Origin: an uncultured Phycisphaeraceae bacterium
GTDB taxonomy: Bacteria; Planctomycetota; Phycisphaerae; Phycisphaerales; Phycisphaeraceae
Assembly: GCA_964609545.1 (NCBI GenBank)
Contig: CAZSSX010000024.1
Span: 1 to 17,051 of the forward strand
Reading direction: 5' to 3'
Length of the DNA stretch: 17,051 bases
The notes below the pieces were generated by a model, which ran no database searches, was not told where the DNA came from, and saw nothing but the letters and a program-made list of their open reading frames with translations. Every line of letters starts with the position of its first letter. Positions within the stretch are counted from its first letter, which is position 1. The position numbers and the translations under genes were made by a program. Of the stretch, positions 1,005-17,051 are shown one piece after another.

Positions 1005-1030
1005 TTATTCTTTAATAAATCAGGAGAAGC

Positions 1031-1579: not shown

Positions 1580-1640
1580 GATGTCCTCTTTCAAATAAGG
1601 AGTTAGACGCTCAAGTCATCATGCCTAAGCGCCAACATGT

Positions 1641-1667
1641 AAAAAAAATAGGCTAACATTTAGCCTA
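1641..1667 (-). terminator. Intrinsic terminator between ssb and rplI
   Basis: Plus strand AAAAAAAA-TAGGCTA-ACATT-TAGCCTA (7-bp perfect stem, 5-nt loop). On the minus strand the hairpin is followed by T8, directly 3' of the ssb stop at 1679. Confidence 0.5.
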
Positions 1668-1678
1668 CTGATGTTTGT

Positions 1679-2209
1679 TTAGAATGGGATATCTTCTTCT
1701 TCAATAGGCTGATGCGCCGGTGCGCCAGCTGTGGACCCCGATGCGTAGTCATCGTTCCCGCCAGAGGAATATCCGCCGGCCGCTGCGGAGCCTTGATTCT
1801 GCGCCGCAGGTGCTGCAGGAGCCGACGACCCCGAACCCGATGCCGATGGCGGAGGATTGCCGTTGCCTTGACCCGCTGGGCGTGCATCAATAAACTGAAA
1901 GCTCTCTAAGACAACCTTAAGTTTCGAGCGATTACCACCCTCTTTGTCTTGCCATTGATCTAATTTAAGGCGTCCCTCTACGAAAAGAGGCCGTCCTTTA
2001 GTGAGATATTGGCTCAAAAGCTCAGCTTGCCTTCCCCATGCTTCGATATCCACAAAAGTAGTTTCCTGCTGACGCTCGCCGCTTTGATTTTTCCAATCAC
2101 GGTTGATGGCCATACCAATATTAGCCACCGCGGTATTGTTAGGCGTGTAACGTAATTCGGGGTCTCGCGTCAGGTTTCCCATGAGCATCACTTTGTTTAA
2201 ATTAGGCAT
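1679..2209 (-). CDS. ssb: Single-stranded DNA-binding protein SSB
   Basis: MPNLNKVMLMGNLTRDPELRYTPNNTAVANIGMAINRDW... OB-fold, then a Gly/Ser/Ala-rich flexible linker and the canonical acidic tip ...EEEDIPF. Start at internal ATG with AGAGGATAAAT upstream; the track's longer 190-aa version starts 14 codons earlier without an RBS. Confidence 0.85.
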   Translation of the reverse strand: MPNLNKVMLMGNLTRDPELRYTPNNTAVANIGMAINRDWKNQSGERQQETTFVDIEAWGRQAELLSQYLTKGRPLFVEGRLKLDQWQDKEGGNRSKLKVVLESFQFIDARPAGQGNGNPPPSASGSGSSAPAAPAAQNQGSAAAGGYSSGGNDDYASGSTAGAPAHQPIEEEDIPF

Positions 2210-2285
2210 ATTTATCCTCTGTTTCTTCGATATAAAATGAGGCCTACCCATAAAAATAGTAGGCTTTTAGAAATGGCTTATTCTA

Positions 2286-2693
2286 TTATTTAGTTGCCGG
2301 CGCAGCCGCTTCAGAAGAAGCCTCTTCAGTCACTGCGGGGGCCAATGATTCGTTGCCTTCTTTGATCGCAGCTTCTAGCTCAACTTCAGCCATATGCGTA
2401 GGGCGTGTCACCATAACGCGTAAAACAGATTCTGAAAGATTACAGTCTCGGTCTAAACCCGTTAGCTTCTCGCCATCCGCACGGAAATACGCAATCAAAT
2501 ACGTGCCTCGTTTTTGACCATCAATTTCATAAGCAAGACGGCGCTCTTCCCATTTATGTAACGTAATCACTTCAGCCTCGGCACGATCTAAAAGACCCTT
2601 CACGTGATCGATGCAATTAGTCATACCCACCGTGACCGCTTCTTGCGTCATAAGGAAAAGTGCTTCGTATAGATTCGTAGTAGTATCAGACAT
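2286..2693 (-). CDS. rpsF: 30S ribosomal protein S6
   Basis: MSDTTTNLYEALFLMTQEAV...LHKWEERRLAYEIDGQKRGTYLIAYFRADGEKL...ESVLRVMVTR matches the S6 fold pattern (YE..F...P, W..R.LAY.I). GGAG RBS 9 nt upstream of ATG. Gene order S6-SSB-L9 is the conserved cluster. Confidence 0.85.
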   Translation of the reverse strand: MSDTTTNLYEALFLMTQEAVTVGMTNCIDHVKGLLDRAEAEVITLHKWEERRLAYEIDGQKRGTYLIAYFRADGEKLTGLDRDCNLSESVLRVMVTRPTHMAEVELEAAIKEGNESLAPAVTEEASSEAAAPATK

Positions 2694-3006
2694 TTTAAAC
2701 TCCGTCTATTTTGATGCTTCGGTCAACCGACACGACGATGCTGGTCACAGGACCCAAAAAGTGGGCCGAAGTATCTTTATTGAACACAACATTCTAATTC
2801 AAATGCCCCAGAAAGGCAAAAGCATCACACAATTTATCTAAGGCACCGCACCATTGGCGTTAAATCACTATTTTAACTAGACTTGCAAACCAAGATCTTC
2901 TTCATCCAAGCCCATCTTCCCAAAAATGCCATTCCAAATTCTGATTTCCACAACGATGCCAACGTTTTTCGTAGATAATACCCAGAGACTTTAAAGGAGT
3001 ATCACG

Positions 3007-3312
3007 ATGACACACCCCAACCCATCCCCACCACCAACCACCTTAAAAATCATCTGTGTGTTTCTGGTCACAGCAGCACTCATCGCCATCTACAGCATCT
3101 ATCTAACCGGCGAAGCCCGCACCACCTCCGCCCAGATAGCCATGCAACAATTTAACGAGAATCAGCGGGACGTCTCCCGAGATTTACAGACCTACGACAC
3201 AATCAAGCAGCTTTACGAATTCTTAATCGGGCCCATCTGGTTGATCGGCGTCTGGCTCACTTTTAAAACCGAATTCAAATCACTATTTAAAAAAACAACC
3301 CATACCCCATAA
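3007..3312 (+). CDS. Small hypothetical membrane protein (Pro/Thr-rich N-terminus, two predicted TM helices)
   Basis: AAAGGAG RBS 7 nt upstream of ATG. Hydrophobic stretches IICVFLVTAALIAIYSIYL and LIGPIWLIGVWLTF. 40 bp upstream of the SPFH gene, same strand. Composition (P/T/H-rich) partly mirrors the C-rich strand bias, so coding status is moderate. Confidence 0.45.
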   Translation: MTHPNPSPPPTTLKIICVFLVTAALIAIYSIYLTGEARTTSAQIAMQQFNENQRDVSRDLQTYDTIKQLYEFLIGPIWLIGVWLTFKTEFKSLFKKTTHTP

Positions 3313-3351
3313 CCCCATAGCCATGCAAAAGCATGACAAAGGATTTTTAAA

Positions 3352-4410
3352 ATGAACAAAAAGATGACCGCTATTTTTACAACCATTGCCCTGATTACCT
3401 TTTTCGGGCTAGTCGCCATGACCGTGCTAGTCAAACCTTACGACACACCCGAATATCAAATGATCGGGAACTCCGAAACCGCATTCCTCATCGAGCTCGA
3501 AGGCAATGCTTCAGTCAAACTAGAAACCCCCAAAGATTACGAAAGCACAAAGGTCATGCAAAAACGCGTCCGCATCACCCACCTTTGGGTACAAGAAGGC
3601 AGGCTACCCAATGATGGAAAATATGTCGCCGCAGTCAAACTCATCCGAGTCGATCGCGCACCAGTGACACGAGAATGGACACCCGATGCAACCTCTGGCA
3701 CTTCCTCCAGAGACGATGCCATCTGGGTAGAATCAGCCGACTCCATCGGCTTTGCCATCGGTTTTAACTGCACCGCATTAATCGAAGAAACCTCAGCCGC
3801 CAAGTTCCTCTATCGCTACCCCTCGCAAACCAAAGCCAGCTCCAGACTAGCCAAAGTCATGGACTCCGAAATCCGCAACAAAGTCCAATCCCTAGCCGCC
3901 AACTTTGCCGCAAGATACAATCTAGACGAGCTAAGAAGCAAAAAAAATGAAATGCTCAAAGCCATCAAAGAGGCCGTCATCCCACATTTCCAATCCAAAG
4001 GCATCACCATCAGCATGATCGGCATGTACGGCGGATTCACCTACCAAAATAAAAATATCCAAAATGCCATCGACAAAGTCTTCGAAGCGCAACAAGAAAA
4101 AAATAAAGAAGCAGCACTCCTAGAAGCAATGAAAACCAAAGAAGCCAGACTCAAATCAGAAGGCGTAGCTGAAGCCAACCGAGACCGCGAAATCGCATCA
4201 GGCAAAGCAGACGCTATCAAAATCATTAACCAAGCACTCAAAGAAGCCAACTCCAACCCCATCTTTATCAAAATGAAATTGATCGAAGTCGAAAATAACC
4301 GCATCAAAAAATGGAGCGGACAAGTACCCAGAATGATCTTTAATTCAGGCGGCGGAAAAAACAACACCGGCTTCGTACCCCTCCTACAAATACCCACAGA
4401 TATGCCATAA
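3352..4410 (+). CDS. SPFH/Band-7 (stomatin/HflK/C/flotillin-like) membrane protein
   Basis: N-terminal TM (AIFTTIALITFFGLVAMTVLV). Central region with the SPFH-like pattern (…LAKVMDSEIRNKVQSLAANFAARYNLDELRSKKNEMLKAIKEAVIPHFQSKGITISMIGMYGGFTYQN…). Then an Ala/Glu/Lys-rich coiled coil (EAQQEKNKEAALLEAMKTKEARLKSEGVAEANRDREIASGKADAIKIINQAL) typical of the HflK/C-flotillin C-terminus. AAAGGA RBS 9 nt upstream. Confidence 0.55.
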   Translation: MNKKMTAIFTTIALITFFGLVAMTVLVKPYDTPEYQMIGNSETAFLIELEGNASVKLETPKDYESTKVMQKRVRITHLWVQEGRLPNDGKYVAAVKLIRVDRAPVTREWTPDATSGTSSRDDAIWVESADSIGFAIGFNCTALIEETSAAKFLYRYPSQTKASSRLAKVMDSEIRNKVQSLAANFAARYNLDELRSKKNEMLKAIKEAVIPHFQSKGITISMIGMYGGFTYQNKNIQNAIDKVFEAQQEKNKEAALLEAMKTKEARLKSEGVAEANRDREIASGKADAIKIINQALKEANSNPIFIKMKLIEVENNRIKKWSGQVPRMIFNSGGGKNNTGFVPLLQIPTDMP

Positions 4411-4436
4411 CCTAAAACAGCAATACATCCCACAAT

Positions 4437-4474
4437 AAAAAGCGAGGGCGCCTCACAGCGTCCCCGCTTTTTTA
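4437..4474 (+). terminator. Rho-independent terminator after the SPFH gene
   Basis: AAAA-AGCGAGGGCGC-CTCACA-GCGTCCCCGCT-TTTTTT. 11-bp GC-rich stem with 1 mismatch and 1 G·U pair, 6-nt loop, T6 tail, starting 27 bp after the stop codon. Confidence 0.6.
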
Positions 4475-4587
4475 CGATATACTGTGCCCAGCAAACCAAA
4501 CACTTAACCCATACCACCCCTGCTTGACCGCCGACCAACCCCTTGCCGTCACCCTATTTTGAATTTATTTTTTTTAAAAGAGCATCC

Positions 4588-5250
4588 ATGAAACCTACCA
4601 TTTTAATCCCACTTCTTTTTGGCGTAATGTTTTCATACCTCGGCGTAAAACATCTCAACTTTTATTTACACACACAAGCCACCCCACAAACCCTCAGCCT
4701 AGCCGACTTAGAATCCCAAGGCTACAGCAACAATGCCCATCTCATACTCACCGATTTTTCCATGAAATTAACCAACCCAGTCTACAAAGAAAAATCTGAA
4801 AGCAACCACATCGCAGATTTTTCCATCCCCCTAATCTCCACCCAAAGCCAGTATTACCGAACACTCAAGCAGATCCTTCAAACCCACCCCATCCGCGAAA
4901 ACACCTTAAATATCACAAGCCCAAAAAAATTCCGCGTACTCCTCTTAAACCCCGCCATCAACAGCAAAGACCAAGCAACAAAATTTATCCAAAATCACCA
5001 ACACCAACAGCTACAAGGCATCATCGTCAATGATATCTATGACCTACCCAATGCCCAGCGCAAACGCTACCAAGAAGCATACCCCCAGCAGGATATGACA
5101 GACATCCTCCTGTTTTCAGTCGGATACCAACCCCCATCGGGCATCTTCGCCGCCGGCTCCTTAGCCCTGAGCGCAATCAGTTGGACCCTCTGTTTGTATT
5201 TTATTTTCCGTAAGAAACAACAGCCTTATCTCAATACCCCTCTAAGCTAA
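4588..5250 (+). CDS. Hypothetical bitopic/two-TM membrane protein (Gln/His-rich central region)
   Basis: ORF-track start at 4543 is a TTG; the first ATG (4588, MKPTILIPLLFGVMFSYLGV) begins directly with a TM helix. A second hydrophobic segment lies near the C-terminus (IFAAGSLALSAISWTLCLYFIF). Weak RBS (AAAAGAG). No recognisable family; not NfeD-like. Confidence 0.45.
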   Translation: MKPTILIPLLFGVMFSYLGVKHLNFYLHTQATPQTLSLADLESQGYSNNAHLILTDFSMKLTNPVYKEKSESNHIADFSIPLISTQSQYYRTLKQILQTHPIRENTLNITSPKKFRVLLLNPAINSKDQATKFIQNHQHQQLQGIIVNDIYDLPNAQRKRYQEAYPQQDMTDILLFSVGYQPPSGIFAAGSLALSAISWTLCLYFIFRKKQQPYLNTPLS

Positions 5251-5292
5251 TTCCCACCCAATACCCCGCCGCCTTCATACAAATCACAAGCA

Positions 5293-5328
5293 TAAAAAAA
5301 CCAAGACCGATCCGATCTTGGTTTTTTT
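5293..5328. terminator. Bidirectional intrinsic terminator between convergent genes
   Basis: AAAAAAA-CCAAGACCG-ATC-CGATCTTGG-TTTTTTT. 9-bp stem with 1 mismatch, flanked by an A-run and a T-run, lying between the stop of the + gene (5250) and the stop of the - gene (5350). Confidence 0.6.
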
Positions 5329-5349
5329 ATGATCACTTATTCTGTTTTT

Positions 5350-6315
5350 TTAAGCCCCAGCTTTAGCCGCTTTTTTCGCCGCCTTGGCAGCTGCTTTTTC
5401 GACCAATTCTTGTATTTCCGCCCGCGATTTAGGCGCTGCTTTCTTCGCCGCCTTTTCCGCTTGCTTAACCGCCTTGGCTTGCTTCTCCGCTAAAACTTCA
5501 TCCCACCCATCAATCGACGCCTTGGCCTGAGGCAAATAATCTTCCGCGGGCATCAGCGAGGGGAACCACGCCCGATCCCACTCCAAACAAATATAACCAT
5601 CATAGCCAATCCCCTTGAGCCTCTTCAACGTATTTTCGACACCCGCCGTGCCTTGACCAATCGGCAAAAACCCGCTGCCCCTACCAATCACCGAATCCTT
5701 AATTTTTGCAATCTTAATCCTGCTATTAAGCGTCGTAATCCCCACCCAGCCGCCCTTATCATGCGCATCATAAATCGCACTATTCAATGCATTCCAGCAG
5801 ATCCCAACCATCGGGTGATCAATAATATCGAGCATCCACCACCACTCTTTGGCCTGCGTAAAACTCCCCGCATTTTCAAAAAGAAGCTGCACACCATACT
5901 CCCCCGCCACTTCCGCCAACGGCTTGGCATGCTCCGCTATTCGCGCGATAACCGTACGACGATTCTCCCCAGGCATAACCTCATTACCATAAATACGAAC
6001 CGCCGAACAACCAATCTCCGACGCCGTCTTAATAGATTTAATAATTCCCGACGTCGCAGCACCCAGCCGCGTCAAATCACGATGATGCAATGCATAAGAT
6101 GTACTCAAACAAATCGGCGCAATCTCCCGAGACTCAAAAAGATCCCGCACCTTAGAAGCATCGCTCAATGCCGGATCACAAGCCAGTGGGCTTTCCTCAC
6201 CGCCTAACGTACGCAGCTCAACCCCAGCAAAACCAAATGCCTTGGCTTTGTCAACGACCTGCTCCAGGGTCCATTCGGGGCAAGCGACGGTGCTAAATGC
6301 AAGCTTGGTAGACAT
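5350..6315 (-). CDS. Sugar-phosphate isomerase/epimerase (xylose-isomerase-like TIM barrel) with C-terminal Lys/Ala-rich histone-H1-like tail
   Basis: From internal ATG: MSTKLAFSTVACPEWTLEQVVDKAKAFGFAGVELR...YGVQLLFEN...GICWNALNS...GYDGYICLEWD, the characteristic AP-endonuclease-2/xylose-isomerase-like TIM pattern. Final ~45 aa AEKQAKAVKQAEKAAKKAAPKSRAEIQELVEKAAAKAAKKAAKAGA are AKKA-repeat-like. The longer 366-aa version starting at 6450 adds 45 aa with no signal peptide or RBS. Confidence 0.75.
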   Translation of the reverse strand: MSTKLAFSTVACPEWTLEQVVDKAKAFGFAGVELRTLGGEESPLACDPALSDASKVRDLFESREIAPICLSTSYALHHRDLTRLGAATSGIIKSIKTASEIGCSAVRIYGNEVMPGENRRTVIARIAEHAKPLAEVAGEYGVQLLFENAGSFTQAKEWWWMLDIIDHPMVGICWNALNSAIYDAHDKGGWVGITTLNSRIKIAKIKDSVIGRGSGFLPIGQGTAGVENTLKRLKGIGYDGYICLEWDRAWFPSLMPAEDYLPQAKASIDGWDEVLAEKQAKAVKQAEKAAKKAAPKSRAEIQELVEKAAAKAAKKAAKAGA

Positions 6316-6482
6316 AAGCGGTATATCCTTTACTAGGCGCAGCAAGCTGCGATGATCTCTATCAGAAACAAGAAGCCTAATTCTAACCTCCTCCCTTGAA
6401 ATTGCCAAAACTGACCCGCCAAACTCCCCATAAAATTCACCGCAACTCACTTTTCCCCCGCGCCAAGCCCACCTCCCCCACC

Positions 6483-6511
6483 TTGCGACCCTAGCCCCTT
6501 CATATTATAAA
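6483..6511 (+). promoter_or_regulatory. Candidate sigma70-type promoter for the HIT gene
   Basis: TTGCGA-N17-TATAAA, about 45 nt upstream of the ATG at 6557. Sequence inspection only. Confidence 0.25.
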
Positions 6512-6556
6512 AGCCCTAACTTTGTGTTACCTCATCTTTTCTAAAAAGGCTCAAAT

Positions 6557-6988
6557 ATGAATCACCCTACCGATCCAGATTGTATTTTTTGCAAAATCAT
6601 CGCCGGACAAATCCCCGCCTACCAACTTTACCAAGACCCCCACGTCCTAGCCTTTCTAGACGTCGGGCCCATCGCCCCCGGACACACCTTAATCATACCC
6701 AAAGCCCATTACCCCACCCTCGATACAATGCCCCCCAACCTCGCCGCACATTGCATCAAAATCGCACCGACCCTCATCAAAGCCATCCAAAAAGCCACCG
6801 GCGCAACAGCCCTCAACCTCCTACAAAACAACGGCGCCATCGCCGGACAAGCCGTCAACCACGTACACTTTCATCTCATCCCACGCACAAAAAATGACGC
6901 ATTTAAATACACCTGGCCAGCACAAAACCTAAAAGAAACCCAAGGATTAGCCCTACTCGAAAAAATTAAAAAACATCTCAACACTTAA
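6557..6988 (+). CDS. HIT-family (histidine triad) nucleotide hydrolase
   Basis: CIFCKII zinc-ribbon-like N-terminus and histidine triad HVHFHLIP (HxHxHxx). Length 143 aa, typical of HINT proteins. Confidence 0.85.
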   Translation: MNHPTDPDCIFCKIIAGQIPAYQLYQDPHVLAFLDVGPIAPGHTLIIPKAHYPTLDTMPPNLAAHCIKIAPTLIKAIQKATGATALNLLQNNGAIAGQAVNHVHFHLIPRTKNDAFKYTWPAQNLKETQGLALLEKIKKHLNT

Positions 6989-7012
6989 AAACAAACCCAA
7001 ATCGCTCAACCC

Positions 7013-7048
7013 AAAAAAAAAACACGCAATACATCGCGTGCCTTTTTA
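7013..7048. terminator. Weak bidirectional terminator between convergent HIT and sulfatase genes
   Basis: A10-CACGC-AATACATC-GCGTG-CCTTTTT. 5-bp stem, A-run upstream and T5 downstream. Confidence 0.35.
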
Positions 7049-7082
7049 AATTTGTAAATTCAAAATCGTTTATCCCATCGCC

Positions 7083-8828
7083 TTACTTAAAAGGCGTTTT
7101 AGCCGTAGGAATATCCACACGCTTACCCGTCGCCCGAACGATCGGCAACCCCGCATCAGCTGCATCAAGCCAACGGAATAATTCCCGGCGAAGCTTAATC
7201 GCCAGCTTCGGCTTCTTACTCGCAAGATTATGCTTCTCCCCAACATCCACAGAAACATGATAAAGCTCCGTCCGCGGATCATAACCCTTCTCATCACTCA
7301 CACCATCACCATAAAAATAAATCAATTTCCAATCACCCTTACGCATCGCGCTATAAGGCTCAATCCCCGCACCCACACCAACATCACGATACCATTGATG
7401 CGGATAATGCCAAAACAAAGGCTTCTTCCGTGTGAATGATTTTCGACGCAATAAAGAACCTAAATCTTGCCCATCTCTTTGAATTTTTAATAACGGATTT
7501 TTCACCCCAGCGATAGATAAAATCGTAGGAAAAATATCATCACCATGCACAGGCTCCGCACAAGTCGTCCCCGGAACAATCGACAAACGAGAATTAATCG
7601 GCTTCTGCTTTTTAAGTTGACCCGCCCACGCAACGATCATCGGAATCCGCGTACCCCCATCATAGCCGCTCCCCTTCCCGCTTAACGCAGGTGCATTATG
7701 ATAATCACGCTTGTATCGCACACGAATCCCACTATTAAGTAATGCCTTGCCCGCGTTACTCCGAGCATGATTAGAAAGCCCGCCGTTGTCTGATACAAAA
7801 AGAATAATCGTATTTTCAGCGATACTATCCGCAGTATTACCATCCCCGTTAGGATCCCTCAACGTACTTAAAATCGCACCCAAGGAAGCATCCATCCCCG
7901 TAAGCATCGAGCCATAATCACTCTCCACTTTAGGCCTGCCATCACGATAAAATTTGAGATATTTCTCAGGCCCAGCAGCGATTTGCGTATGCACCGCAAA
8001 CTGCGCCATATTCATAAAAAAAGGAACACCTTCCGCCGCAGCATCTCGAATCACACCCCGAGCTTTAATCGTAATCGCATCAGTCAAATACTCGCCCTCA
8101 GGACGATCCTCCAACCCAGGATACATCTTCGCATATTTACCAAGCCAAGGAGAATACCAACCGCCCCAAGGCCCGCCCCCATGACTCCCCGCAATATTAA
8201 TATCAAATCCCAAATTCGTAGGGTCAGCCCCTAAAGCTTGACCAAAGTGAGCCTTACCAATATGAATCGTCCGATACCCAGCACCTCGAAGCAACGTAGG
8301 TAACGTCACAAAACCGTCACCAGGCTGCAAACCCACAGATCGCCATTCAGGCGAAAACAAATACCTATTCTTACTCCGACCATGACCAATCCAATCACTC
8401 ACACCAGAACGAGCAGGATTCTGACCCGTCATAAAACTCATCCGCGTCGGTGAACAAACCGGATGCGATGCATAAGCATTGGTAAACTTCATCCCACGGC
8501 TAGCCAACGTTTCCATATGAGGCGTATGGTAAATATTATTCCATACCGTCCGCTTCTTACCAAAACTAACCGAAGTATCCTGCCAACCCATATCATCAAC
8601 AACAAATAAAATAATATTAGGCTTCACCCCTCGAGCAATCACACCCTTACCCCCAGATCGATTCGTCACTTCCATTGGCCTAGCACTGACACCCGAATCT
8701 CCCCCAGCCAATCCATCCCTTCCCTCTGATATATCTGACACTTCAACAGTCGCACAAGCCCCAATAACAAAACAAATAAAGCCTAAACAAAAGGTCTCAA
8801 ATACAGAAAATAATCTACCAATAATCAT
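7083..8828 (-). CDS. Secreted sulfatase (arylsulfatase/choline-sulfatase family; formylglycine-dependent)
   Basis: N-terminal signal peptide (MIIGRLFSVFETFCLGFICFVIGACA). NIILFVVDDMGWQD metal-binding start, sulfatase signature VCSPTRMSFMTGQNPARSGV (C-x-P-x-R) and a GKAHFG-like downstream motif; 581 aa. Confidence 0.85.
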   Translation of the reverse strand: MIIGRLFSVFETFCLGFICFVIGACATVEVSDISEGRDGLAGGDSGVSARPMEVTNRSGGKGVIARGVKPNIILFVVDDMGWQDTSVSFGKKRTVWNNIYHTPHMETLASRGMKFTNAYASHPVCSPTRMSFMTGQNPARSGVSDWIGHGRSKNRYLFSPEWRSVGLQPGDGFVTLPTLLRGAGYRTIHIGKAHFGQALGADPTNLGFDINIAGSHGGGPWGGWYSPWLGKYAKMYPGLEDRPEGEYLTDAITIKARGVIRDAAAEGVPFFMNMAQFAVHTQIAAGPEKYLKFYRDGRPKVESDYGSMLTGMDASLGAILSTLRDPNGDGNTADSIAENTIILFVSDNGGLSNHARSNAGKALLNSGIRVRYKRDYHNAPALSGKGSGYDGGTRIPMIVAWAGQLKKQKPINSRLSIVPGTTCAEPVHGDDIFPTILSIAGVKNPLLKIQRDGQDLGSLLRRKSFTRKKPLFWHYPHQWYRDVGVGAGIEPYSAMRKGDWKLIYFYGDGVSDEKGYDPRTELYHVSVDVGEKHNLASKKPKLAIKLRRELFRWLDAADAGLPIVRATGKRVDIPTAKTPFK

Positions 8829-8869
8829 GGGAATCGCCTTATCAATGAATAAAAAAACAACGAAACCCC

Positions 8870-8898
8870 ATTATATCCAAAACACAAAGCCAAGCCAA
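8870..8898 (-). promoter_or_regulatory. Candidate sigma70-type promoter for sulfatase gene
   Basis: On the minus strand: TTGGCT-N17-TATAAT (perfect -10), about 35 nt upstream of the ATG at 8828. Confidence 0.3.
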
Positions 8899-9092
8899 CA
8901 TCAACGATTTAAAATGCCTCATCAAAATAACTTATACTGCTGGACCTCTAATAAAAAATGCCTCGCATATAGAGAGAAAGATGCCCCCCCGAAAATGCGT
9001 CGCCATTGATCAACCAAATGTAAAACAAAATCCGCTTGCTTAACATCCTCCGATGAGATGATGAAGTACGCCTATATTTATTTAAATGCATT

Positions 9093-9191
9093 TGAGCCCT
9101 TCTATCAACCTCAAATTTCTTTTGAAAATGTACGATTCAAGATTTGCAATGAGGGTTGTTTTTGAAATTATGAGGTTGATAGAAAGGCTCA
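9093..9191. repeat. Long imperfect inverted repeat (about 27-bp arms, about 45-nt spacer) in the intergenic region
   Basis: Left arm TGAGCCCTTCTATCAACCTCAAATTTC (9093-9119). Right arm GAAATTATGAGGTTGATAGAAAGGCTCA (9164-9191). 26 of 27 positions pair, with a single-nt bulge. The spacer holds two TTTTGAAA(A/T)T copies. Located 200 bp 3' of the 660-aa gene's stop, on the transcribed strand. Confidence 0.6.
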
Positions 9192-9392
9192 TTTAAGACT
9201 AACCCGCAAGCGCCAGCACACATCGGCCGCTACTTCCAATGCAACAATCAAACAACCCCATGCAACGCCCGATGGACACACGCCACATAGAACAGCCCAT
9301 CATAAAATCACCAACCCCAACCCAGCGGCATCAACAATTAACCAATCCACCTTAAACAGCTACCCTCATCTCAAAGACCACTACGCTTCATA

Positions 9393-11375
9393 TCAATCAA
9401 AGCTAGGTGGCGCAATATAGCCTCCACCACTACCAGATAATGCCCGGCGTGGCCTACCAGATGACCGATACCCACCCCTTGAACGACCCTTTTTTTCTTC
9501 CGTCAAACGATTATAAAGAACATAGTATTCCGGATCACTCGTCGATGGACGACTCTTAACACGAATCACACCCCCCATCGCATCCGAGGTATACACAAGC
9601 CCCAGCCCTTGCTCCGTGAGTGCCGTATCAATCGCAACCGCACCGACATTAAAATCAACGATAATCTTTTTGTTCGGCGTGACAGTGCCTCGACTCGGAT
9701 TAGCAACATACATTTTCACAGCCTTAGGCTCACCGATCGTTTCACCAGGATAAACTCGGAAATTTTCACGATAATATTTCCCGTGATGCATACGAATAAC
9801 TTCCACCGCAGCTGAAGAATCTTTAGATGCTTGCTTCACAAAAAAGGTCCGAATCGGATAAACATACACAGCTGCAGACCACGCAGAAGGATCCGTTAAT
9901 AAATAAAGCTTATCCCCGATTTCTGCTTTCTGCTCGGGGTTCACTTTCTCACGATGATAAAGAGGATTTAACAACGCAATCCGAATCCGATACCGGTAAT
10001 AATGACCAGGATCCATACTCATATCATGAGCCAAAATCTCAATCGTTTGCTCTGCTTGTCTCCGCTTTTCCTCCTCTGTCAAGTCCTCCCCGATCGGGTC
10101 CTCTACCTGAACATCTCCCCCATTACTAGCATCAGCCTCGTGATCAATCGCTTCCCGATCAGATTCCAATCTACTGACTTTATCTTCCAATACCGTCATC
10201 TTTTCAATCAACCGCTCAAGCTTGGTTTTTCGTTTCCGAGCATTTCTAGAAGGCCTATTACTGTCAGGCAAAATACTCCCGCCAAGACCTTTATCTGTTT
10301 TCCGCTTAGACAGCGAACGAGGTTTACGCCCAGACTTCAACTCTCTATCTCTACGCGCCTGCTCTCGTTTTTCCTCACGATCAATGCTCTTCTGAAGCTT
10401 GGCTTTTTCTTTTAAAACACTCTCAAGTAATTTAGCATTTTTGGTTAACCGCTTGCGTTGCTCTAAAGTATAAACACGGCTATCAACTTCCAACGGATTC
10501 ACAAACGGCCTAGAACGATTGCTCAACGGCGGAAGTTCCACATACGCATTCTCTTTTTCATTCTGGATCGCCATATTAACTACAAAATCAGACTGCTGAG
10601 GTGTCAAATCCCCCAAATCACTAAACATCATCTCCTGATTAGGCAAATGCTCAACCACTTCCGTCGATCCCCATTGACCCGTTGCCGGATCTTTTTTCTG
10701 ACGCTCAAGCACCCAACCCGTCACCACTTCTCGCTTATATAAAACTGGAAATTTCACCCGAGAGTAAGCTTGACGCATCTTGTATTTTTGATATTTCGCC
10801 GTAAAATGCAATACAGAAAGATGCCTCATCCTCTCATCCGGATCCTGCTTACGCATCAGCGCAGTATACTCCTCAGATAATTCCGTAGCCTTATTTAAAT
10901 TAGCGTTACTACGCGGATCCAAAGTCAACACCCGCTTAGCCAGCCATGCCGAAAATTCTCGCTGAGATTTAAAATCATAATAATCAGCAGAACACTTAAT
11001 CTGCGTAGCCACAGGAAAAAGGGGCATCTTAATATAGCTAATCGAGTCATTAATCTGGTGAGATTCAACACGAGGCCCCACCGCAGGAGCCAACAAAGAT
11101 GCCATCTTTTGCCCTAAACGCGTATCAAGCTTAGCCTCAAATTCCTTAGCATCCTCAAAATAACGATCCTTCCTCACACCACTAGGCAAATTATCAGCCA
11201 AAGCTTCAATCTTAATCTGCCCAGCATCCTTAATCAGCTTCTCCGTACGCTCCTGAATACTTTTTTTACTCGGAGCAAACATCAAATAAGCCGCAAAAAG
11301 AGATACGATCAGCGCCACCAATAATGCGATCTTATCACTATATTTTTCTGCAAAAGTCGCGTCTTTGTACATCAT
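9393..11375 (-). CDS. Large hypothetical bitopic membrane protein (660 aa) with Arg/Lys/Glu-rich coiled-coil region and Gly/Arg-rich C-terminal tail; third gene of the PilMN-fusion cluster
   Basis: Short cytoplasmic N-terminus followed by one TM (IALLVALIVSLFAAYLMF). About 120-aa highly charged segment (…LKEKAKLQKSIDREEKREQARRDRELKSGRKPRSLSKRKTDKG…KRKTKLERLIEKMTVLEDKVSRLESDREAIDHE…). C-terminus …KKGRSRGGYRSSGRPRRALSGSGGGYIAPPSFD. AAGAGG RBS; 98-bp gap to the upstream gene. No recognisable secretin/PilP signature by eye. Confidence 0.7.
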   Translation of the reverse strand: MMYKDATFAEKYSDKIALLVALIVSLFAAYLMFAPSKKSIQERTEKLIKDAGQIKIEALADNLPSGVRKDRYFEDAKEFEAKLDTRLGQKMASLLAPAVGPRVESHQINDSISYIKMPLFPVATQIKCSADYYDFKSQREFSAWLAKRVLTLDPRSNANLNKATELSEEYTALMRKQDPDERMRHLSVLHFTAKYQKYKMRQAYSRVKFPVLYKREVVTGWVLERQKKDPATGQWGSTEVVEHLPNQEMMFSDLGDLTPQQSDFVVNMAIQNEKENAYVELPPLSNRSRPFVNPLEVDSRVYTLEQRKRLTKNAKLLESVLKEKAKLQKSIDREEKREQARRDRELKSGRKPRSLSKRKTDKGLGGSILPDSNRPSRNARKRKTKLERLIEKMTVLEDKVSRLESDREAIDHEADASNGGDVQVEDPIGEDLTEEEKRRQAEQTIEILAHDMSMDPGHYYRYRIRIALLNPLYHREKVNPEQKAEIGDKLYLLTDPSAWSAAVYVYPIRTFFVKQASKDSSAAVEVIRMHHGKYYRENFRVYPGETIGEPKAVKMYVANPSRGTVTPNKKIIVDFNVGAVAIDTALTEQGLGLVYTSDAMGGVIRVKSRPSTSDPEYYVLYNRLTEEKKGRSRGGYRSSGRPRRALSGSGGGYIAPPSFD

Positions 11376-11473
11376 CGTTTAAGCCTCTTGTGTTAATTTT
11401 ATCAATTAAGCAATGAACCCAATTCTTGATCCATCATTTTACCAGAATCACCCCGACACTTGCCCCGCTACTA

Positions 11474-13090
11474 CTAATTATTCTTTTCTACGCCATTCAG
11501 TTCTGCGTTATATTTATCCAAAACCACCTTAGGCATATATTGATCAACCCATTCATTAAGCCACAAACTTTCAATCACCACCGTCAACTCCACCAAAGGC
11601 TTACTACCATAAACATAACCCTCAACCAATTGCTCATACAAATCCACATGCCCCATATGCATCGCGATAACCGTATTAAAATTCACCTTCGCTAATTTAT
11701 CAATAAACACAGGCACTTGCCTAGCCTCTATCACAATCGTACAAATCGTATGCTTAACCCGATAAGTCTTATTGGATTTGCGACCCGTATGAGCCAAGTG
11801 ATAATCAAGAGCCCCCTTGACATCACTGCCCACAACAGTATCGCTACGTTTATTGCGACCCCGATTAATTAACCCCGAATCATTAAAACTCGAAGAAACA
11901 TCGAAATTCCGAGGCTGCTGAAAAGTGCCACCCAACCCACCTTGCCCCGCCAAAGAACCCCCGCCAAAACCCGTAAGCGAGGGATTGCGAGGCACCCAAA
12001 GTTGAACATCACTCATTTGATCTTTCACGTTTTTTACAAGCGTAATTTCACTACCCAAACCTGTGTTATTACCAAGCCCCACATAACCCCTACCAATCCG
12101 AACCTGAACCAATTTCTTAATCGGATTCTCCCGCACAGTACTCGATGCGCTGGCCGTGACAGCTTCATTAGTCAGCCGAATCGCACGAATAATATCCTCG
12201 ATAATCCAAAGCTGTTCCTGCCACTGCCAAATCCGATCCATCCCTATTTTCTCACCACTCTTACTCTGCAGATCAAATTCAAAAGGGTAAGGCGTATTCT
12301 GAGTATTACGATCATCCACTTCAGTATTTAAAGACTGAGCCGCAATAGCACTTCGCGATCGAGTCAAGGCCTCGGGTAATTTCGTATTCGCATAAATATA
12401 AAGCGCCTCAGCACGCTTCACCAACGCAGTATGCCAAACTTTTCGCTGAGCCTCCCGACATTCTTTCTCGTCTACTTCATTCAAAGGCGAATTATCAATC
12501 TCACCATCCGTCAATTCACGCTGCTTATTACTAATAAACTCCGTCCGAGCATCGGACAGTTCCTTATAAATACGATCAACCGAAGGCGGTAATCCCCCAC
12601 GCAAATCCACCTCTAAAAATCGCTTCATCGACGCAATATAAGAAAAACGAGCCGAACGCGCCGTCGTCTCTTTATCACTACGAAACCGCTCCTTCTGATC
12701 CGCACTCATCCTGCTTTCCAAATCAATCTTATCAAATAAACCAGAAAGCATCGGCTTATGATCACCACGATTAAAACGAATCACATTCTTAGAAATTCGC
12801 CCAGAACCAGCGATACGCTCCGCTTTCCACGCTTTCCCAGCCAAAACTAAATGCTGATTCACCACAACCGAAACCGCCTCAGGAGACTCACCAGCAGCCA
12901 AAGGAGGCAGCATCACCTCACCCCGAAGACGCCTCACAATATGACGCGGCTTATCCAGTTGTTTCGCCAAGGCCTCGCGCTCCGTCCGAGCATCTAACGC
13001 CATATATAATGATGCCCCAAATAACAACACAATCACCGAGGAACTAATCGCCAAAGGGTTACCTTTAATAATCACAGAAAACTTATTCAT
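11474..13090 (-). CDS. Large hypothetical bitopic membrane protein (538 aa) with PilO/GspM-like topology, translationally coupled to the PilM-PilN fusion gene
   Basis: Its start ATG overlaps the upstream stop (ATGAATAA, 8-nt overlap at 13083-13090). N-terminal TM PLAISSSVIVLLFGASLYMAL followed by a charged helix (DARTEREALAKQLDK…), then a roughly 480-aa presumably periplasmic region including a Gly-rich stretch (SLTGFGGGSLAGQGGLGGT). Far larger than the ~200 aa of canonical PilO. Confidence 0.7.
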   Translation of the reverse strand: MNKFSVIIKGNPLAISSSVIVLLFGASLYMALDARTEREALAKQLDKPRHIVRRLRGEVMLPPLAAGESPEAVSVVVNQHLVLAGKAWKAERIAGSGRISKNVIRFNRGDHKPMLSGLFDKIDLESRMSADQKERFRSDKETTARSARFSYIASMKRFLEVDLRGGLPPSVDRIYKELSDARTEFISNKQRELTDGEIDNSPLNEVDEKECREAQRKVWHTALVKRAEALYIYANTKLPEALTRSRSAIAAQSLNTEVDDRNTQNTPYPFEFDLQSKSGEKIGMDRIWQWQEQLWIIEDIIRAIRLTNEAVTASASSTVRENPIKKLVQVRIGRGYVGLGNNTGLGSEITLVKNVKDQMSDVQLWVPRNPSLTGFGGGSLAGQGGLGGTFQQPRNFDVSSSFNDSGLINRGRNKRSDTVVGSDVKGALDYHLAHTGRKSNKTYRVKHTICTIVIEARQVPVFIDKLAKVNFNTVIAMHMGHVDLYEQLVEGYVYGSKPLVELTVVIESLWLNEWVDQYMPKVVLDKYNAELNGVEKNN

Positions 13091-15158
13091 AAACGACTCT
13101 CCTTCTCGACCGGCTCATTGCTGCCCCACCGGGCTCTTCATTTTTATCTGTCTCTGGCGCCCGAGGATCTTTCAAAACAATATAGCATTCAAAAACAATA
13201 AGCTTGTAATTACCATCTGTCTTCTCATGAAAAATCAAAGGATCTGAAACAATCAACTCCTCCAGCCTCACACCCGCCCCTTGCCCGCTTGAAGTACGCC
13301 GCCTATAAGATCGCCTCACACCCCCAGGAAGCAATCCGCCCCCAGGCAAAATACCCACGCCAGGCTGAACAAAACCCCCATTCACAGGGTTAATCTTTTT
13401 CCCATCAAGATCTAAAAATACCTTAGGAATCACTTTCAACAAAGGCAAATCAGAACCAACAATCGTATAAGGACGCCGATTGTTCTTAATCACAGATTTC
13501 AAGGGATCCATAAAATGCGTATAAAACCACTGAGATGTACTGTCCCCGGTTTCTAAACCATAAGGCGTCTTAAATTTCAAAGAAACGAAAAAACGCGGCT
13601 TACCCCCCGATTTATCAAAATCACCCGCAGACTTCGCATCTTTCCCACCATCAGCCCCACTCGGTTCAAAAGTACCCGGCAAATACTCAATCGTGGAATT
13701 AAGTAAAGTGATACTTTTTCGCTGAGCAGGCGGAATCTTTAAAATCTCATCCAAATTCCCCTCCTCAAACGCTACCTGAGTGCCTAAGTGCTTAAGCGCC
13801 GTATCCAAATCCGCTAAGAATAAAGGCAGCACCTCACGCCCCCCCAACATACTACGATAAATATCGATTTTGCCCGTCTCACCCGTCCCAATCCCATAAG
13901 CCTCATACAGCCCATGATATTTAGAAGCCTGATTGGTGTCTTTATCGACAACTTTAATCGCTTTGGCAACGTAGGCCTGATCTTGCGACAAGCCTTTCTT
14001 CTGAAAGAAAAAACCAAAAACACCCACCACCAACATCAAGCTCGCTGCAGCCAAAAAGATAGGCCCCTTGGCTTTCCAAATCCGTGACTTAATAACCGCT
14101 TTAGGCAAAATATTAGCATTGATGTATCCCAAGCCCAACCCTTGAAGCGCTAACCCGTAAGCCGTCGCCATATTGATCGCCACACCCGCGAATTCAGACT
14201 CTTGACGCCCTTCTAAGCTCGCCCGCTCATATTCCATAGGCTTAATAATTTCCATCTCAAGCTGTTTTTGCAAAAATTTACGCAAACCAGGCAACTTAAA
14301 AGTAGAACCCACGCAAATAATACGTTGCAAATCCGCATCACGATTCTGACTCTGATAAAAACCTATTGTACGCTGCAAATTTTGAACCAAATCAGAAAAC
14401 ACAGGACGCATCGCTTGAAAAATCTGCCGAGCGTATTTACTAGAACCCGCTTCTCGCTTATGCACCTCAGCTTTGGGAAAACTCAAATTAAATTGATCCA
14501 CCAACGCATCCGTAAAATGATTGCCCCCTAACGAAAGTGTCCGCAACCAAACCCCACCCTGATCCGCGATAATCACATCCGTTGAACTCGTCCCAATATC
14601 GACAAACACAGTACCCGGGGAATCCGCATCCAATTTTTGATCATACGTAAATGCGTTATAAACACTCAAAGGAGAAAGCGTAACACCCTCAACACGGATC
14701 CCAACATCCTGAAGATTTCGCAAAAAACCTTCCACACGAGCCCGAGTTATCGCAAAAATACCCACCTCAATATCAGGCATATCATCTTGCGAAAATACTT
14801 GATAATCCCATTCAACCTCTTCTAAAGGAAACGGAATCTGCTGCTTAGCTTCATACTGAACCATCCCCCGAATCTGCTTCTTATTCACAGGCGGTAATTT
14901 GGCAAACTTGGCGATAGCCATATTCCCAGCCACCGAAACAAAGACAGGCGCATCCGTCAGATCATGCTTGGCAAGCAGCTTTTCTAGCCCAAGCTGAATC
15001 TCTTCATCAACATCCAAGTCAGGCGTGGTCAGCACACGCTTAAACTCGACCACCTCGTGGGCGATCACCGTTACACCATCATCATCGCGTGCCAACTTCA
15101 TCGCTTTAATGGCATTAGCGCCGATATCTAGGCCCCATGCTTCGCTCATTTTCGCCAT
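13083..15158 (-). CDS. PilM-type actin-like ATPase domain fused to PilN-like TM anchor and extended periplasmic domain (GspL-like architecture, 691 aa)
   Basis: N-terminal ~345 aa carry PilM family motifs: WGLDIGANAIKAMKL, VFVSVAGNMA, KKQIRGMVQYEAKQQIPFPLEEVEWDYQV, VFVDIGTSSTDVII, LGGNHFTDALVDQFNLSFPKAEVHKRE, ICVGSTFKLPGLRKFLQKQL. This is followed by INANILPK, which resembles the conserved INLLP PilM-binding N-terminus of PilN. Then one TM (GPIFLAAASLMLVVGVFGFFF) and an approximately 306-aa C-terminal region with Gly/Pro-rich and Arg-rich stretches. GGAG RBS 8 nt upstream. Confidence 0.8.
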   Translation of the reverse strand: MAKMSEAWGLDIGANAIKAMKLARDDDGVTVIAHEVVEFKRVLTTPDLDVDEEIQLGLEKLLAKHDLTDAPVFVSVAGNMAIAKFAKLPPVNKKQIRGMVQYEAKQQIPFPLEEVEWDYQVFSQDDMPDIEVGIFAITRARVEGFLRNLQDVGIRVEGVTLSPLSVYNAFTYDQKLDADSPGTVFVDIGTSSTDVIIADQGGVWLRTLSLGGNHFTDALVDQFNLSFPKAEVHKREAGSSKYARQIFQAMRPVFSDLVQNLQRTIGFYQSQNRDADLQRIICVGSTFKLPGLRKFLQKQLEMEIIKPMEYERASLEGRQESEFAGVAINMATAYGLALQGLGLGYINANILPKAVIKSRIWKAKGPIFLAAASLMLVVGVFGFFFQKKGLSQDQAYVAKAIKVVDKDTNQASKYHGLYEAYGIGTGETGKIDIYRSMLGGREVLPLFLADLDTALKHLGTQVAFEEGNLDEILKIPPAQRKSITLLNSTIEYLPGTFEPSGADGGKDAKSAGDFDKSGGKPRFFVSLKFKTPYGLETGDSTSQWFYTHFMDPLKSVIKNNRRPYTIVGSDLPLLKVIPKVFLDLDGKKINPVNGGFVQPGVGILPGGGLLPGGVRRSYRRRTSSGQGAGVRLEELIVSDPLIFHEKTDGNYKLIVFECYIVLKDPRAPETDKNEEPGGAAMSRSRRRVVYE

Positions 15159-15189
15159 TGATTACTCCTACAAATATCGTCTTATTACA

Positions 15190-15218
15190 AATATAAATGC
15201 ACTATCTTAAAGATTCAA
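15190..15218 (-). promoter_or_regulatory. Candidate sigma70-type promoter for the PilMN-fusion operon
   Basis: On the minus strand: TTGAAT-N17-TATATT, about 30 nt upstream of the ATG at 15158. Sequence inspection only. Confidence 0.3.
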
Positions 15219-15303
15219 TCGATCCTGCTGATCTCATCATCCATTTTTCTTTTGAAGTCATAGCATAACATAACACGCCCCAACATGCACCACCCACAAA
15301 CAT

Positions 15304-15329
15304 CATCCCCAAACACCATCCCCAAACAC
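15304..15329. repeat. Perfect 13-bp tandem direct repeat (CATCCCCAAACAC x2, preceded by partial CAT) in a C/A-rich leader region
   Basis: catCATCCCCAAACAC-CATCCCCAAACAC. Lies about 90-115 bp upstream (in the transcription direction) of the candidate -35 of the PilMN-fusion operon. Confidence 0.6.
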
Positions 15330-15539
15330 ATCTCCTCCCAAATCACACGACCTACCATAAAAAATAGCTTGTCTACGCTCTAAAAGGGTCATCACATTCA
15401 AAAAAAACATCATAAAGTCCGTGCCAATCTAACGATAGACTACCTTTATTATCATAGCCCAGCCCAGCCGCCCTTAGCAACTTTTTCTCAATATTTCTAA
15501 CACATACATCGATATTTTATACCTTACCCTGAGTATGCT

Positions 15540-15893
15540 TTATAAATGCTTCGCAGCCGGGCGATATTTCAACCCCGCCTTAATCGTAAAAACAATCGCT
15601 CCACCCAAAACAAGATAAACCGTCCCCATCATAAAATAAATCGAATACCCGTACGCCATGCTCGCGTTACTCCCCGCGCCATCGTAAACGCTATCCTTGC
15701 TCATCGTAAATTCAACATTACCTTGATGAACATAAATACTCTCCCCACCCGCATCACCATCAGCCAGCGACCCTGCACAGTTCGGACACGCCGACGCAGG
15801 CTGAGCATAACACATCCCAATTAAAATCACTGCACCAATAAATAATCCCACCACATGCCTCCCAGCCATCCACTTATAATAATCTGCCATCAT
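15540..15893 (-). CDS. Small hypothetical membrane protein (N-terminal signal/TM, CPNC motif, C-terminal TM)
   Basis: Start set at the internal ATG preceded by AAGGAA. This removes the 44-bp overlap with the upstream PDZ gene that the 157-aa track ORF would have. Sequence MADYYKWMAGRHVVGLFIGAVILIGMCYAQPASA|CPNCAGSLADGDAGG…, followed by a C-terminal hydrophobic segment YSIYFMMGTVYLVLGGAIVFTI. Confidence 0.45.
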   Translation of the reverse strand: MMADYYKWMAGRHVVGLFIGAVILIGMCYAQPASACPNCAGSLADGDAGGESIYVHQGNVEFTMSKDSVYDGAGSNASMAYGYSIYFMMGTVYLVLGGAIVFTIKAGLKYRPAAKHL

Positions 15894-15969
15894 CCATTCC
15901 TTTATACATCCTCCCCCTACCACTGATCGGTCATCTCCGATCCAAAAACACCCGAAACACGCTTCTTTT

Positions 15970-16818
15970 TTAACCACCCGCATGAAGCTGATAAGCTTCC
16001 TTGGCAACATCAAAACTCAGCGCATCTGCTAAACGTCGTTTCAGCCTGCGTACCACTGATTTGTGTAACACATCACCGTTACCGCCATAGATTTTATCCC
16101 ACCCTAATGCGCTGCCATAAGCAAACGTCACTGAGATCACACGCTTGCCTCGATACACTTTCATCACAATTTTATCACCCGGTTTTCGGCCTCGCACCTT
16201 CGACGCCAGCAACTCGATCCGCGAGGCATAATCTCCTTTGATTTGAGCGCCATCAAAGACCAATATACGATCTCCCGGACGCAAAAACGCGTACGCGGGC
16301 AATCCCAGCGTGGTGCTTTTTAACTGAATCCCTTGATTTTCATATTTAGAGCCTTTCGTGAGAATATCATTTTTCCCAGCAAAAGTAATGCCTAGCATGC
16401 CATAATCGCGCTTAACTAGCGTATCGCTGACCAATCTGATTTCATCTCTAACCAAATAATGCCAAAGCACTCTTTTAATTCTGCTGCGTACTTCAAAATC
16501 ATCGCTCACGCCATAGGCTTGGACCATTTGGCTTGATTTAATCGCTTCGGATTGCATCAAAGCGTACATGGCCTCCTCGCGGACATAAAAATCTTCATCG
16601 CCAAGCTCTTTAATCACCCGAGCGATCCGCTTTTTCGCCCGCTGCGCCTCGGTCAACACTTTGGCTTGCGCCTTCACATCAGCACGGATCCCCGCTTGAT
16701 TAGCCTCAGGCTTGGCCCAGGCAGCACTTTGCCCAGCAGACATAGCCAAGCAGACGTAACTTATGATTACGACGCTAGTTGCGCCGATTTTTTTTGATTT
16801 TTTCATCGTTTTTTGCAT
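15970..16818 (-). CDS. Secreted PDZ-domain protein with HEAT-like N-terminal helix repeat
   Basis: GGAG RBS. Signal peptide MQKTMKKSKKIGATSVVIISYVCLAMSAGQSAAWA. DFYVREEAMYALMQS resembles a HEAT/PBS-lyase-type repeat. PDZ-like segment GMLGITFAGKND…GIQLKSTTLGLPAYAFLRPGDRILVFDGAQIKGDYASRIELLASKVRGRKPGDKIVMKVYRGKRVISVTF. Confidence 0.65.
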   Translation of the reverse strand: MQKTMKKSKKIGATSVVIISYVCLAMSAGQSAAWAKPEANQAGIRADVKAQAKVLTEAQRAKKRIARVIKELGDEDFYVREEAMYALMQSEAIKSSQMVQAYGVSDDFEVRSRIKRVLWHYLVRDEIRLVSDTLVKRDYGMLGITFAGKNDILTKGSKYENQGIQLKSTTLGLPAYAFLRPGDRILVFDGAQIKGDYASRIELLASKVRGRKPGDKIVMKVYRGKRVISVTFAYGSALGWDKIYGGNGDVLHKSVVRRLKRRLADALSFDVAKEAYQLHAGG

Positions 16819-17051
16819 ATTGATAGCTCCATTTTTTCGATTTTAGTTGATTTTATGCTGCGATTCTACCCGCAATAGGGATAAAATCCAAGCTTTAATC
16901 CCCAAATTCAAGATTGCAGGGGCGCGTGACTCGCTGAAGCGATGGTTGTTTTTTTCAAGATTCCATTATATTGGAAATTTCTGTTTCTTCCCGAAAAGGG
17001 CGTTTTGAAAGGCCTTGAAAGAGGGGTGAACGCGATCGAAGGGCTGTGTTA

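Follow-up and report, generated by a model that had tools for sequence, protein, structure and literature searches.

A conserved, probably PilM/PilO-type three-gene operon of Phycisphaerae encoding two large single-pass membrane proteins

A stretch of 17,051 nucleotides (nt) from an uncultured Phycisphaeraceae bacterium (contig CAZSSX010000024.1, positions 1 to 17,051), called the window throughout the paper, carries three consecutive genes, here named A, B and C. Gene A encodes a PilM-like protein fused to a transmembrane (TM) segment. Genes B and C encode two large membrane proteins which an initial annotation had placed at the positions of PilO and PilP and had considered the most novel-looking products of the window. 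This raised the question whether B and C are orphan proteins or divergent parts of a familiar type of envelope machine. Our best reading is that they are no orphan oddities, but belong to a divergent, enlarged and lineage-wide variant of a PilM/PilO-type platform, with Amuc_1101–1099 of Akkermansia as its closest relatives.

Conservation of the A–B–C operon

Genes A, B and C are co-directional on the minus strand of the window. The stop codon of A and the start codon of B overlap by 8 nt, a gap of 98 nt separates B from C, and an AAGAGG Shine–Dalgarno-like site is located ~8 nt upstream of the ATG of C. The reading frames proposed initially for B and C were confirmed exactly, with 538 and 660 amino acids (aa), ATG starts and minus strand orientation. 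Hydropathy analysis agreed with the one TM segment claimed for each protein, as a single N-terminal hydrophobic segment was found in B (~residues 12–33) and in C (~residues 16–34), and no second one in either. The same gene order was observed on a further contig (L001), encoding a PilM fusion of 717 aa, proteins of 546 aa and 691 aa, and a sulfatase. The L001 orthologs share 46% (B) and 43% (C) identity with the window proteins.

Direct queries with B and C against Pfam, NCBIfam and PDB sequences gave no match. A word-indexed search of 5.8 billion proteins yielded one C ortholog and two B relatives, and removal of the charged block of C changed nothing. An exhaustive HMMER search, started from a 3-sequence alignment of B, retrieved 1579 cluster representatives at E ≤ 1e-3, with 499 of them at E ≤ 1e-30. 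The near-orphan look of the open reading frames (ORFs) was therefore, in the case of B, an artefact of search sensitivity.

A scan with one genome per species recovered 46 loci, nearly all labelled as Phycisphaerae or Planctomycetota metagenome-assembled genomes (MAGs). The scan employed an alignment and motifs derived from Phycisphaeraceae, and the taxonomic range is biased accordingly and represents a lower bound. Loci were considered testable when at least 600 nt of sequence were available on the relevant side, and were analysed by local hidden Markov model (HMM) searches. Gene A was found upstream of B in 40 of 41 testable loci and gene C directly downstream of B in 42 of 44, all exceptions being contig ends. 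The PilO/PilP-like positions behind a PilM-type gene are thus very strongly conserved, and the lack of synteny with the PilM-fusion gene, which the initial annotation had named as an argument against its own proposal, was not observed in the Phycisphaerae loci. B and C are real genes, not chance ORFs, and the three genes were shown to be inherited together.

Neighbourhoods were read over ±8 kilobases (kb) around each operon. The flanks were not conserved across loci and, besides a few secretins, what recurred near the operon were housekeeping genes and, in high-GC genomes, spurious antisense ORFs. A conserved A–B–C core between variable flanks indicates a self-contained three-gene operon. Two contigs (L012 and L030) of the MAG LejiaC_63_19 carry one operon copy each, so some genomes possess paralogous modules. 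In a literature search, a description of the A–B–C operon in Planctomycetes was not found.

A secretin or secretin-like gene was present in 4 of the 46 loci. In L035, L043 and L046 a secretin is encoded ~5 kb upstream of the operon (Pfam Secretin 3.7e-20; 1.8e-10 to Amuc_1098). In L049, the most divergent locus, C is directly followed by a homologue of this secretin's N-terminal half (E = 9e-22); the ORF of this homologue stops just before the contig end, without a secretin domain. The resulting order B–C–secretin-like gene is the one found in pilMNOPQ and in Akkermansia Amuc_1101–1098. The four genes represent a TPR-containing secretin family of distant Amuc_1098 relatives (Table 1).

In nearly all loci the operon stands by itself, and pilin, ATPase and PilC-type genes were missing from the ±8 kb around it, which would also fit an orphan PilM/N/O-like module co-opted as periplasmic cage or scaffold for another envelope machine, for example the flagellar motor. 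There is a precedent in Helicobacter pylori, where a pilMNO operon occurs without other pilus genes and PilN and PilO form a cage of the flagellar motor (PMC10823254). Such a co-option nevertheless appears unlikely. The secretin-like gene after C in L049 and the secretins near the operon in three other loci speak against it, flagellar genes were not observed beside the operon, and it is to proteins of the Akkermansia MUL2 locus, encoded beside a secretin and a pilin-like gene, that A is most closely related and B structurally most similar.

Relationships of the three proteins

Protein A matched Pfam PilM_2 (PF11104) with E = 2e-33 and 116.2 bits (cutoff 27) over residues 9–339, TIGR01175 (pilM) with 143.9 bits, above the cutoff of 133, and PilM chains of the PDB with 1.8e-23 at best. 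Its best NCBIfam match was Amuc_1101_fam (NF045709; 5.5e-59, model positions 1–404 of 608), where its 200.5 bits missed the full-length equivalog cutoff of 650 bits. In the reverse direction, an HMM of the A family matched Akkermansia Amuc_1101 at 3e-50 across the PilM domain and the TM part. At the level of sequence, A was shown to be a PilM-family protein, homologous to Amuc_1101 in the cytoplasmic domain and TM segment only.

A match of A to the Pfam FtsA domain (4.3e-10) was obtained as well. Planctomycetes are not known to possess FtsZ, and the operon might be viewed as a cell-division or envelope-morphogenesis module, in which an FtsA-like protein and its bitopic partners replace missing divisome parts in these FtsZ-less bacteria. 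Its very wide conservation in the class without linkage to pilus genes would agree with such a function. However, A scored far better with the PilM models (PilM_2 116 bits, TIGR01175 above cutoff) than with the ftsA model (25.6 bits, cutoff 175.85), and the fold modelled for B is that of PilO/GspM, not FtsB/L/Q. Moreover, the two copies in one MAG (L012, L030) would be unusual for a core divisome gene. Because A favours PilM over FtsA and B has a predicted PilO fold, a divisome role was judged very improbable.

B-family proteins are 420–550 aa long, mostly 420–500 aa, and window B stands at the long end due to two insertions. The term "giant", used for both proteins initially, is justified in comparison to canonical PilO and PilP (~200 aa); within its own family of 510–760 aa, C is of typical size. 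The B-family alignment showed the motif M..L.W.K.N…V ahead of the TM segment, followed by a helical region, then a middle block (W.WQ..LWI..D…A…N … PVK.L) leading into a hypervariable Gly/Pro/Met-rich insertion, and finally a conserved C-terminal block (TGR.SN.LYDVRH … NFMTV … GY.YG … IE..WL..W…MP). Window B matched no Pfam model at E ≤ 0.1, including PilO (PF04350), PilN (PF05137) and GspM (PF04612), and none of 91 family members matched the same models at E ≤ 0.01. One family member matched NCBIfam GspM at 0.03. The only recurrent NCBIfam match of the family was Amuc_1100_fam (NF038287), obtained for 5 of the 91 members (best 1.1e-3); window B gave no match to it at E ≤ 0.1. Judged by these profiles, B is outside the curated Amuc_1100, PilO and GspM sequence families.

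An AlphaFold model of B was built from a 3-sequence alignment. It reached a mean predicted local distance difference test score (pLDDT) of 40, with ~50–60 in the matched C-terminal blocks. Foldseek comparison of this model with the PDB ranked PilO first (2rjz, E = 5e-3), followed by 5uvr and 3jc8_O, with Amuc_1100 in the top 8. A targeted search with the B-family HMM yielded E = 0.0013 for Amuc_1100, whose sequence was verified against PDB 6LAD and 6KNY, and in six Akkermansia loci the best ORF for this HMM was Amuc_1100 each time (E 0.0015–0.11). The alignment was limited to the N-terminal ~50–90 residues with a W-x-x-x-N motif, the TM segment and the first helix (hhalign P = 0.008). From the model we concluded that B probably contains a PilO/GspM-class ferredoxin-like (αββ)2 core, enlarged by a long helical stalk and an insertion between the core halves, and that its nearest solved structural relative would be Amuc_1100. 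Comparison of B, C and the periplasmic part of A with one another gave no significant homology, the best result being the A periplasmic domain versus the B core (P = 0.011, 90 columns).

For C, 40 family members were alignable over the whole length. Conserved motifs were found at the cytoplasmic N-terminus (MK.KN.NF.E.H.EK), in the N-domain (…PRDF.YVSV…, …DV.LERQ..DP.TG.W… and PLPG) and in the C-domain (WAHD.TV.PG.TYRYR…NPLF…S.WS.PV…FF.V…AT.EVWR.FNG.W…F.V.PGDPIG…VD), and two helices stand on either side of a hypervariable low-complexity stretch. Window C and its L001 ortholog are 63% identical over the N-terminus and TM segment and 57% over the C-domain, whereas the helices and basic linker reach 23–31%. 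The Gly/Arg-rich tail described initially was found, 8 of the final 32 residues being G and 6 being R. Queries with C, the C family and a C-domain profile against Pfam, NCBIfam and PDB sequences gave only coiled-coil noise, and no homologue outside its own family was detected in these searches. One of the 40 family members matched Amuc_1099_fam (NF042425) at E = 0.025. By its sequence, the C family is previously undescribed. A model of C, built from a 2-sequence alignment (mean pLDDT ~40), gave helical-hairpin matches only with Foldseek. The features of C that fit PilP or GspC were its gene position and the β-rich C-domain only, and no sequence match to an HR domain was obtained. C was provisionally assigned as the subunit at the PilP/GspC/Amuc_1099 position, an assignment which rests on gene position, together with topology and co-inheritance.

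The spacer of C and a predicted envelope platform

Within C, a K/R/E-rich, heptad-like block of ~120 residues had been noted initially and proposed to span the periplasm as a coiled-coil ruler. The charge of this block is real, since residues 304–452 contain 38 K/R and 32 D/E, in total 70 charged residues of 149. Its heptads did not exceed chance overall, as the best a/d register of the whole block gave P = 0.23 versus shuffles; significant heptads were restricted to residues 377–416 with the core LERLIEKMTVLEDKVSRLE (P = 0.0025) and extended over only ~20 residues. AlphaFold predicted helices at residues 304–347 and 377–416 (pLDDT 70–82) and at 434–452, with non-helical, Gly/Ser/Pro-containing breaks between them, of which the first (348–376) is strongly basic.

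In favour of a rigid coiled-coil or single-α-helix ruler, which would fix the distance across the periplasm, one may cite the two long helices at 304–347 and 377–416, the heptad pattern of the latter and the similarly charged block retained in the L001 ortholog. On the other hand, a basic linker of ~30 residues containing Gly, Ser and Pro interrupts the helices, and the periodicity of the whole block equals that of shuffled sequences. Furthermore, conservation within the family is lowest in the inter-domain region. This region measures between 15 and 253 aa, most members have a Pro/Gly-rich version and two (L007, L017) lack it almost entirely, while window C and its L001 ortholog possess the most charged spacers (~27% K/R, 22% D/E). 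This variable length and composition fits an evolvable flexible spacer, not a conserved ruler. At the family level the ruler was largely refuted, and we consider it highly unlikely for the charged block of window C. Hypervariable Gly/Pro/Arg/Met-rich low-complexity insertions at fixed positions were observed in all three proteins of the window and of loci L004-L049, namely near the C-terminus of the periplasmic part of A, between the core halves of B and between the domains of C.

The PilM matches of A, the similarity to Amuc_1101, the A–B–C synteny, the Foldseek results for B with PilO and Amuc_1100, the link to secretins and the gene order of MUL2 together point to a platform or alignment subcomplex, anchored in the inner membrane and reaching into the periplasm, within an envelope machine of the type-IV-filament class, a prediction to which we give somewhat better than even chances. 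By analogy, A–B–C most likely represents the counterpart of PilM-PilN/PilO/PilP and GspL/GspM/GspC in the Planctomycetes–Verrucomicrobia–Chlamydiae (PVC) lineage, closest to Amuc_1101/1100/1099 of Akkermansia MUL2. In such a platform, B would pair with the periplasmic domain of A, as PilO does with PilN or GspM with GspL. C would be anchored with its N-terminus inside, and its TM segment and α/β N-domain would stay near the A/B layer, while the conserved β-rich C-domain would be presented outward to a secretin or another outer-membrane component in the manner of PilP or GspC. The flexible spacer of variable length between both domains, extremely charged in this lineage, would act as an extensible tether instead of a fixed ruler. 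The short conserved cytoplasmic N-termini of B and C may dock on the PilM-like domain, in analogy to the N-terminus of PilN. With their long stalks and low-complexity spacers, A, B and C would all be suited to a wide periplasm.

Several observations weigh against the platform assignment. The periplasmic domain of A gave nothing against that of Amuc_1101 in hhalign. B passed no curated threshold (PilN, PilO, PilP, GspM, GspC, Amuc_1100_fam, Amuc_1099_fam), and hhalign comparison of its profile with Amuc_1100, as single sequence and as 6-sequence profile, was not significant past the N-terminus. The fold evidence for B depends on a model with a pLDDT of 40 (~50–60 in the matched region). Likewise, C passed no curated threshold, PilP, GspC and Amuc_1099_fam included. 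The C-family HMM gave E > 3 for Akkermansia Amuc_1099, the hhalign probability was <2%, and the globular domains of C were modelled at pLDDT ~30, where a fold is not readable. Finally, in the window and in most loci no pilin, extension ATPase, PilC-type protein or secretin is encoded beside the operon.

A further-reaching and tentative proposal, which we rate well below the platform assignment, is that A–B–C forms the core of an ancestral, MUL2-related machine of the PVC superphylum, with which sulfatase-rich polysaccharide degraders of the Phycisphaerae type would capture or import macromolecular glycans, and in which C would serve as periplasm-spanning tether. In Akkermansia, MUL2 is required for the uptake of mucin. 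If true, an evolvable spacer, disordered or charged, would link a domain near the inner membrane to a distal docking domain in C, a design adapted to the enlarged and variable planctomycete periplasm. Tethers of this kind would be new, with no equivalent in classical pili or type II secretion.

Amuc_1100 and its neighbours have attracted much research because of their effects on host immunity and their connection with mucin foraging. In Phycisphaerae, a near-invariant operon joins a PilM–TM fusion to a predicted Amuc_1100/PilO-like protein and to a further large bitopic protein, which would provide a much wider evolutionary frame for MUL2-type machines. It also defines two large protein families, B and C, without curated Pfam or NCBIfam model. 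The predicted core comprises the PilM domain, the PilO-like core, the two globular domains of C and the short cytoplasmic N-termini, as distinct from parts predicted to be adjustable spacers. There is a possible bearing on how Planctomycetes bridge an unusually wide periplasm and take up polymers.

Table 1. Coordinates of the operon genes, their protein segments and the associated secretin genes (nucleotide positions in the window unless a locus is given).
Feature	Residues	Nucleotides	Strand	Basis or remark
Gene A		13083..15158	−	691 aa; PilM-like domain, TM segment, periplasmic domain
A, PilM-like domain with actin-like ATPase fold	1–340	14139–15158	−	Pfam/TIGR/PDB matches
A, TM helix	~363–387	13998–14072	−	Hydropathy
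A, periplasmic domain, ~300 aa		13086–13997	−	
Gene B		11474..13090	−	538 aa; ATG start
B, conserved N-terminal motif and TM segment		12992–13090	−	
B, helical stalk		12242–12991	−	
B, predicted PilO-like core, first half	~284–345	12056–12241	−	
B, Gly-rich low-complexity insertion	~346–428	11807–12055	−	
B, predicted PilO-like core, second half	~429–531	11498–11806	−	
Gene C		9393..11375	−	660 aa; ATG start
C, conserved cytoplasmic N-terminal motif		11331–11375	−	
C, TM segment		11274–11330	−	
C, α/β N-domain	36–303	10467–11270	−	
C, charged helix–linker–helix spacer	304–442	10050–10466	−	
C spacer, helix	304–347		−	AlphaFold
C spacer, basic Gly/Ser/Pro linker	348–376		−	AlphaFold, composition
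C spacer, heptad-bearing helix	377–416		−	AlphaFold, heptad test
C spacer, acidic stretch	417–442		−	
C, β-rich conserved C-domain	443–628	9492–10049	−	
C, Gly/Arg tail		9396–9491	−	
TPR-containing secretin family, L049		4481-6421		Distant Amuc_1098 relative
TPR-containing secretin family, L035		9-1988		Distant Amuc_1098 relative
TPR-containing secretin family, L043		19-2343		Distant Amuc_1098 relative
TPR-containing secretin family, L046		43-2058		Distant Amuc_1098 relative

Immediately downstream of C, a sulfatase gene was found in the window (7083-8828, minus strand) and in L001 (13479-15098, plus strand), where a β-helix/GH141-like gene and a second sulfatase lie beyond it. This adjacency may be due to chance in sulfatase-rich genomes, or may hint at a role connected with glycans. 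Directly upstream of A, both contigs encode a small protein (window 15540-16013, minus strand; L001 6558-6917, plus strand; 56% identity over 86 aa). This protein has a signal or TM segment at its N-terminus, contains a CPNC motif and carries a TM segment at its C-terminus together with a basic tail. None of the 46 Phycisphaerae loci contains the gene, which is a candidate for a fourth, lineage-specific component.

Elsewhere in the window, rpsF, ssb and rplI are encoded at 1031-2693 (minus strand). In other bacteria rpsR is commonly found between ssb and rplI; the gap of 85 nt between them is too small for this gene. A xylose-isomerase-like TIM-barrel protein (PF01261; 5350-6450, minus strand) carries a histone H1-like, Lys/Ala-rich C-terminal tail of ~45 residues. 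The plus strand of the window displayed a GC skew of −0.2 to −0.47 over all 17 kb, irrespective of gene orientation, and L001 (1-21104) one of +0.35 to +0.57. This strand asymmetry is far above the usual replication-associated skew.

Comparison with known systems

The type IVa PilM–PilN–PilO–PilP set resembles the operon in the PilM domain of A, the (αββ)2 core modelled for B and the bitopic N-terminal anchors. The third protein stands where PilP would be expected; in L049 its next neighbour is a secretin-like gene, comparable to PilQ. In contrast to type IVa systems, the PilM part and its membrane partner form one polypeptide, as in GspL, and B and C are without sequence match to Pfam PilN, PilO and PilP. 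C is TM-anchored and ~3x the size of PilP, with two globular domains and a spacer, and in most loci the operon is unlinked to pilQ or to pilB, pilC and pilin genes.

Compared to GspL–GspM–GspC of type II secretion, sequence matches were marginal only (T2SSL 0.0055, GspL 0.021 and, for one B-family member, GspM 0.03). No other gsp genes adjoin the operon, and neither an HR nor a PDZ domain was detected in C. With the flagellar-cage PilM/PilN/PilO of H. pylori it shares the stand-alone three-gene layout of a PilM-type operon (PMC10823254). PilN and PilO of H. pylori are, however, normal-sized and recognisable homologues, and a flagellar link was not seen beside A–B–C.

The products of Amuc_1102–1098 have been described as abundant "pili-like" envelope proteins and as part of the MUL2 locus, with Amuc_1101 as PilM protein, Amuc_1102 as pilin-like and Amuc_1099 and Amuc_1100 as uncharacterised (PMC5332112, PMC13174399). 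The order in the Akkermansia locus analysed here (L050) was Amuc_1102, Amuc_1101 (MUL2B, 612 aa), Amuc_1100 (317 aa), Amuc_1099 (337 aa) and Amuc_1098 (907 aa). B and C are considerably larger (538 versus 317 aa and 660 versus 337 aa), and the NCBIfam cutoffs were not reached. Detectable similarity was lacking between C and Amuc_1099, as well as between the periplasmic domains of A and Amuc_1101. An Amuc_1102-like pilin gene was found neither in the window nor in any Phycisphaerae locus, and the adjacent secretin is absent from the window and most loci. What both systems have in common is the gene order, which is the same as A–B–C, and the architecture of A, which is like that of Amuc_1101 and GspL.

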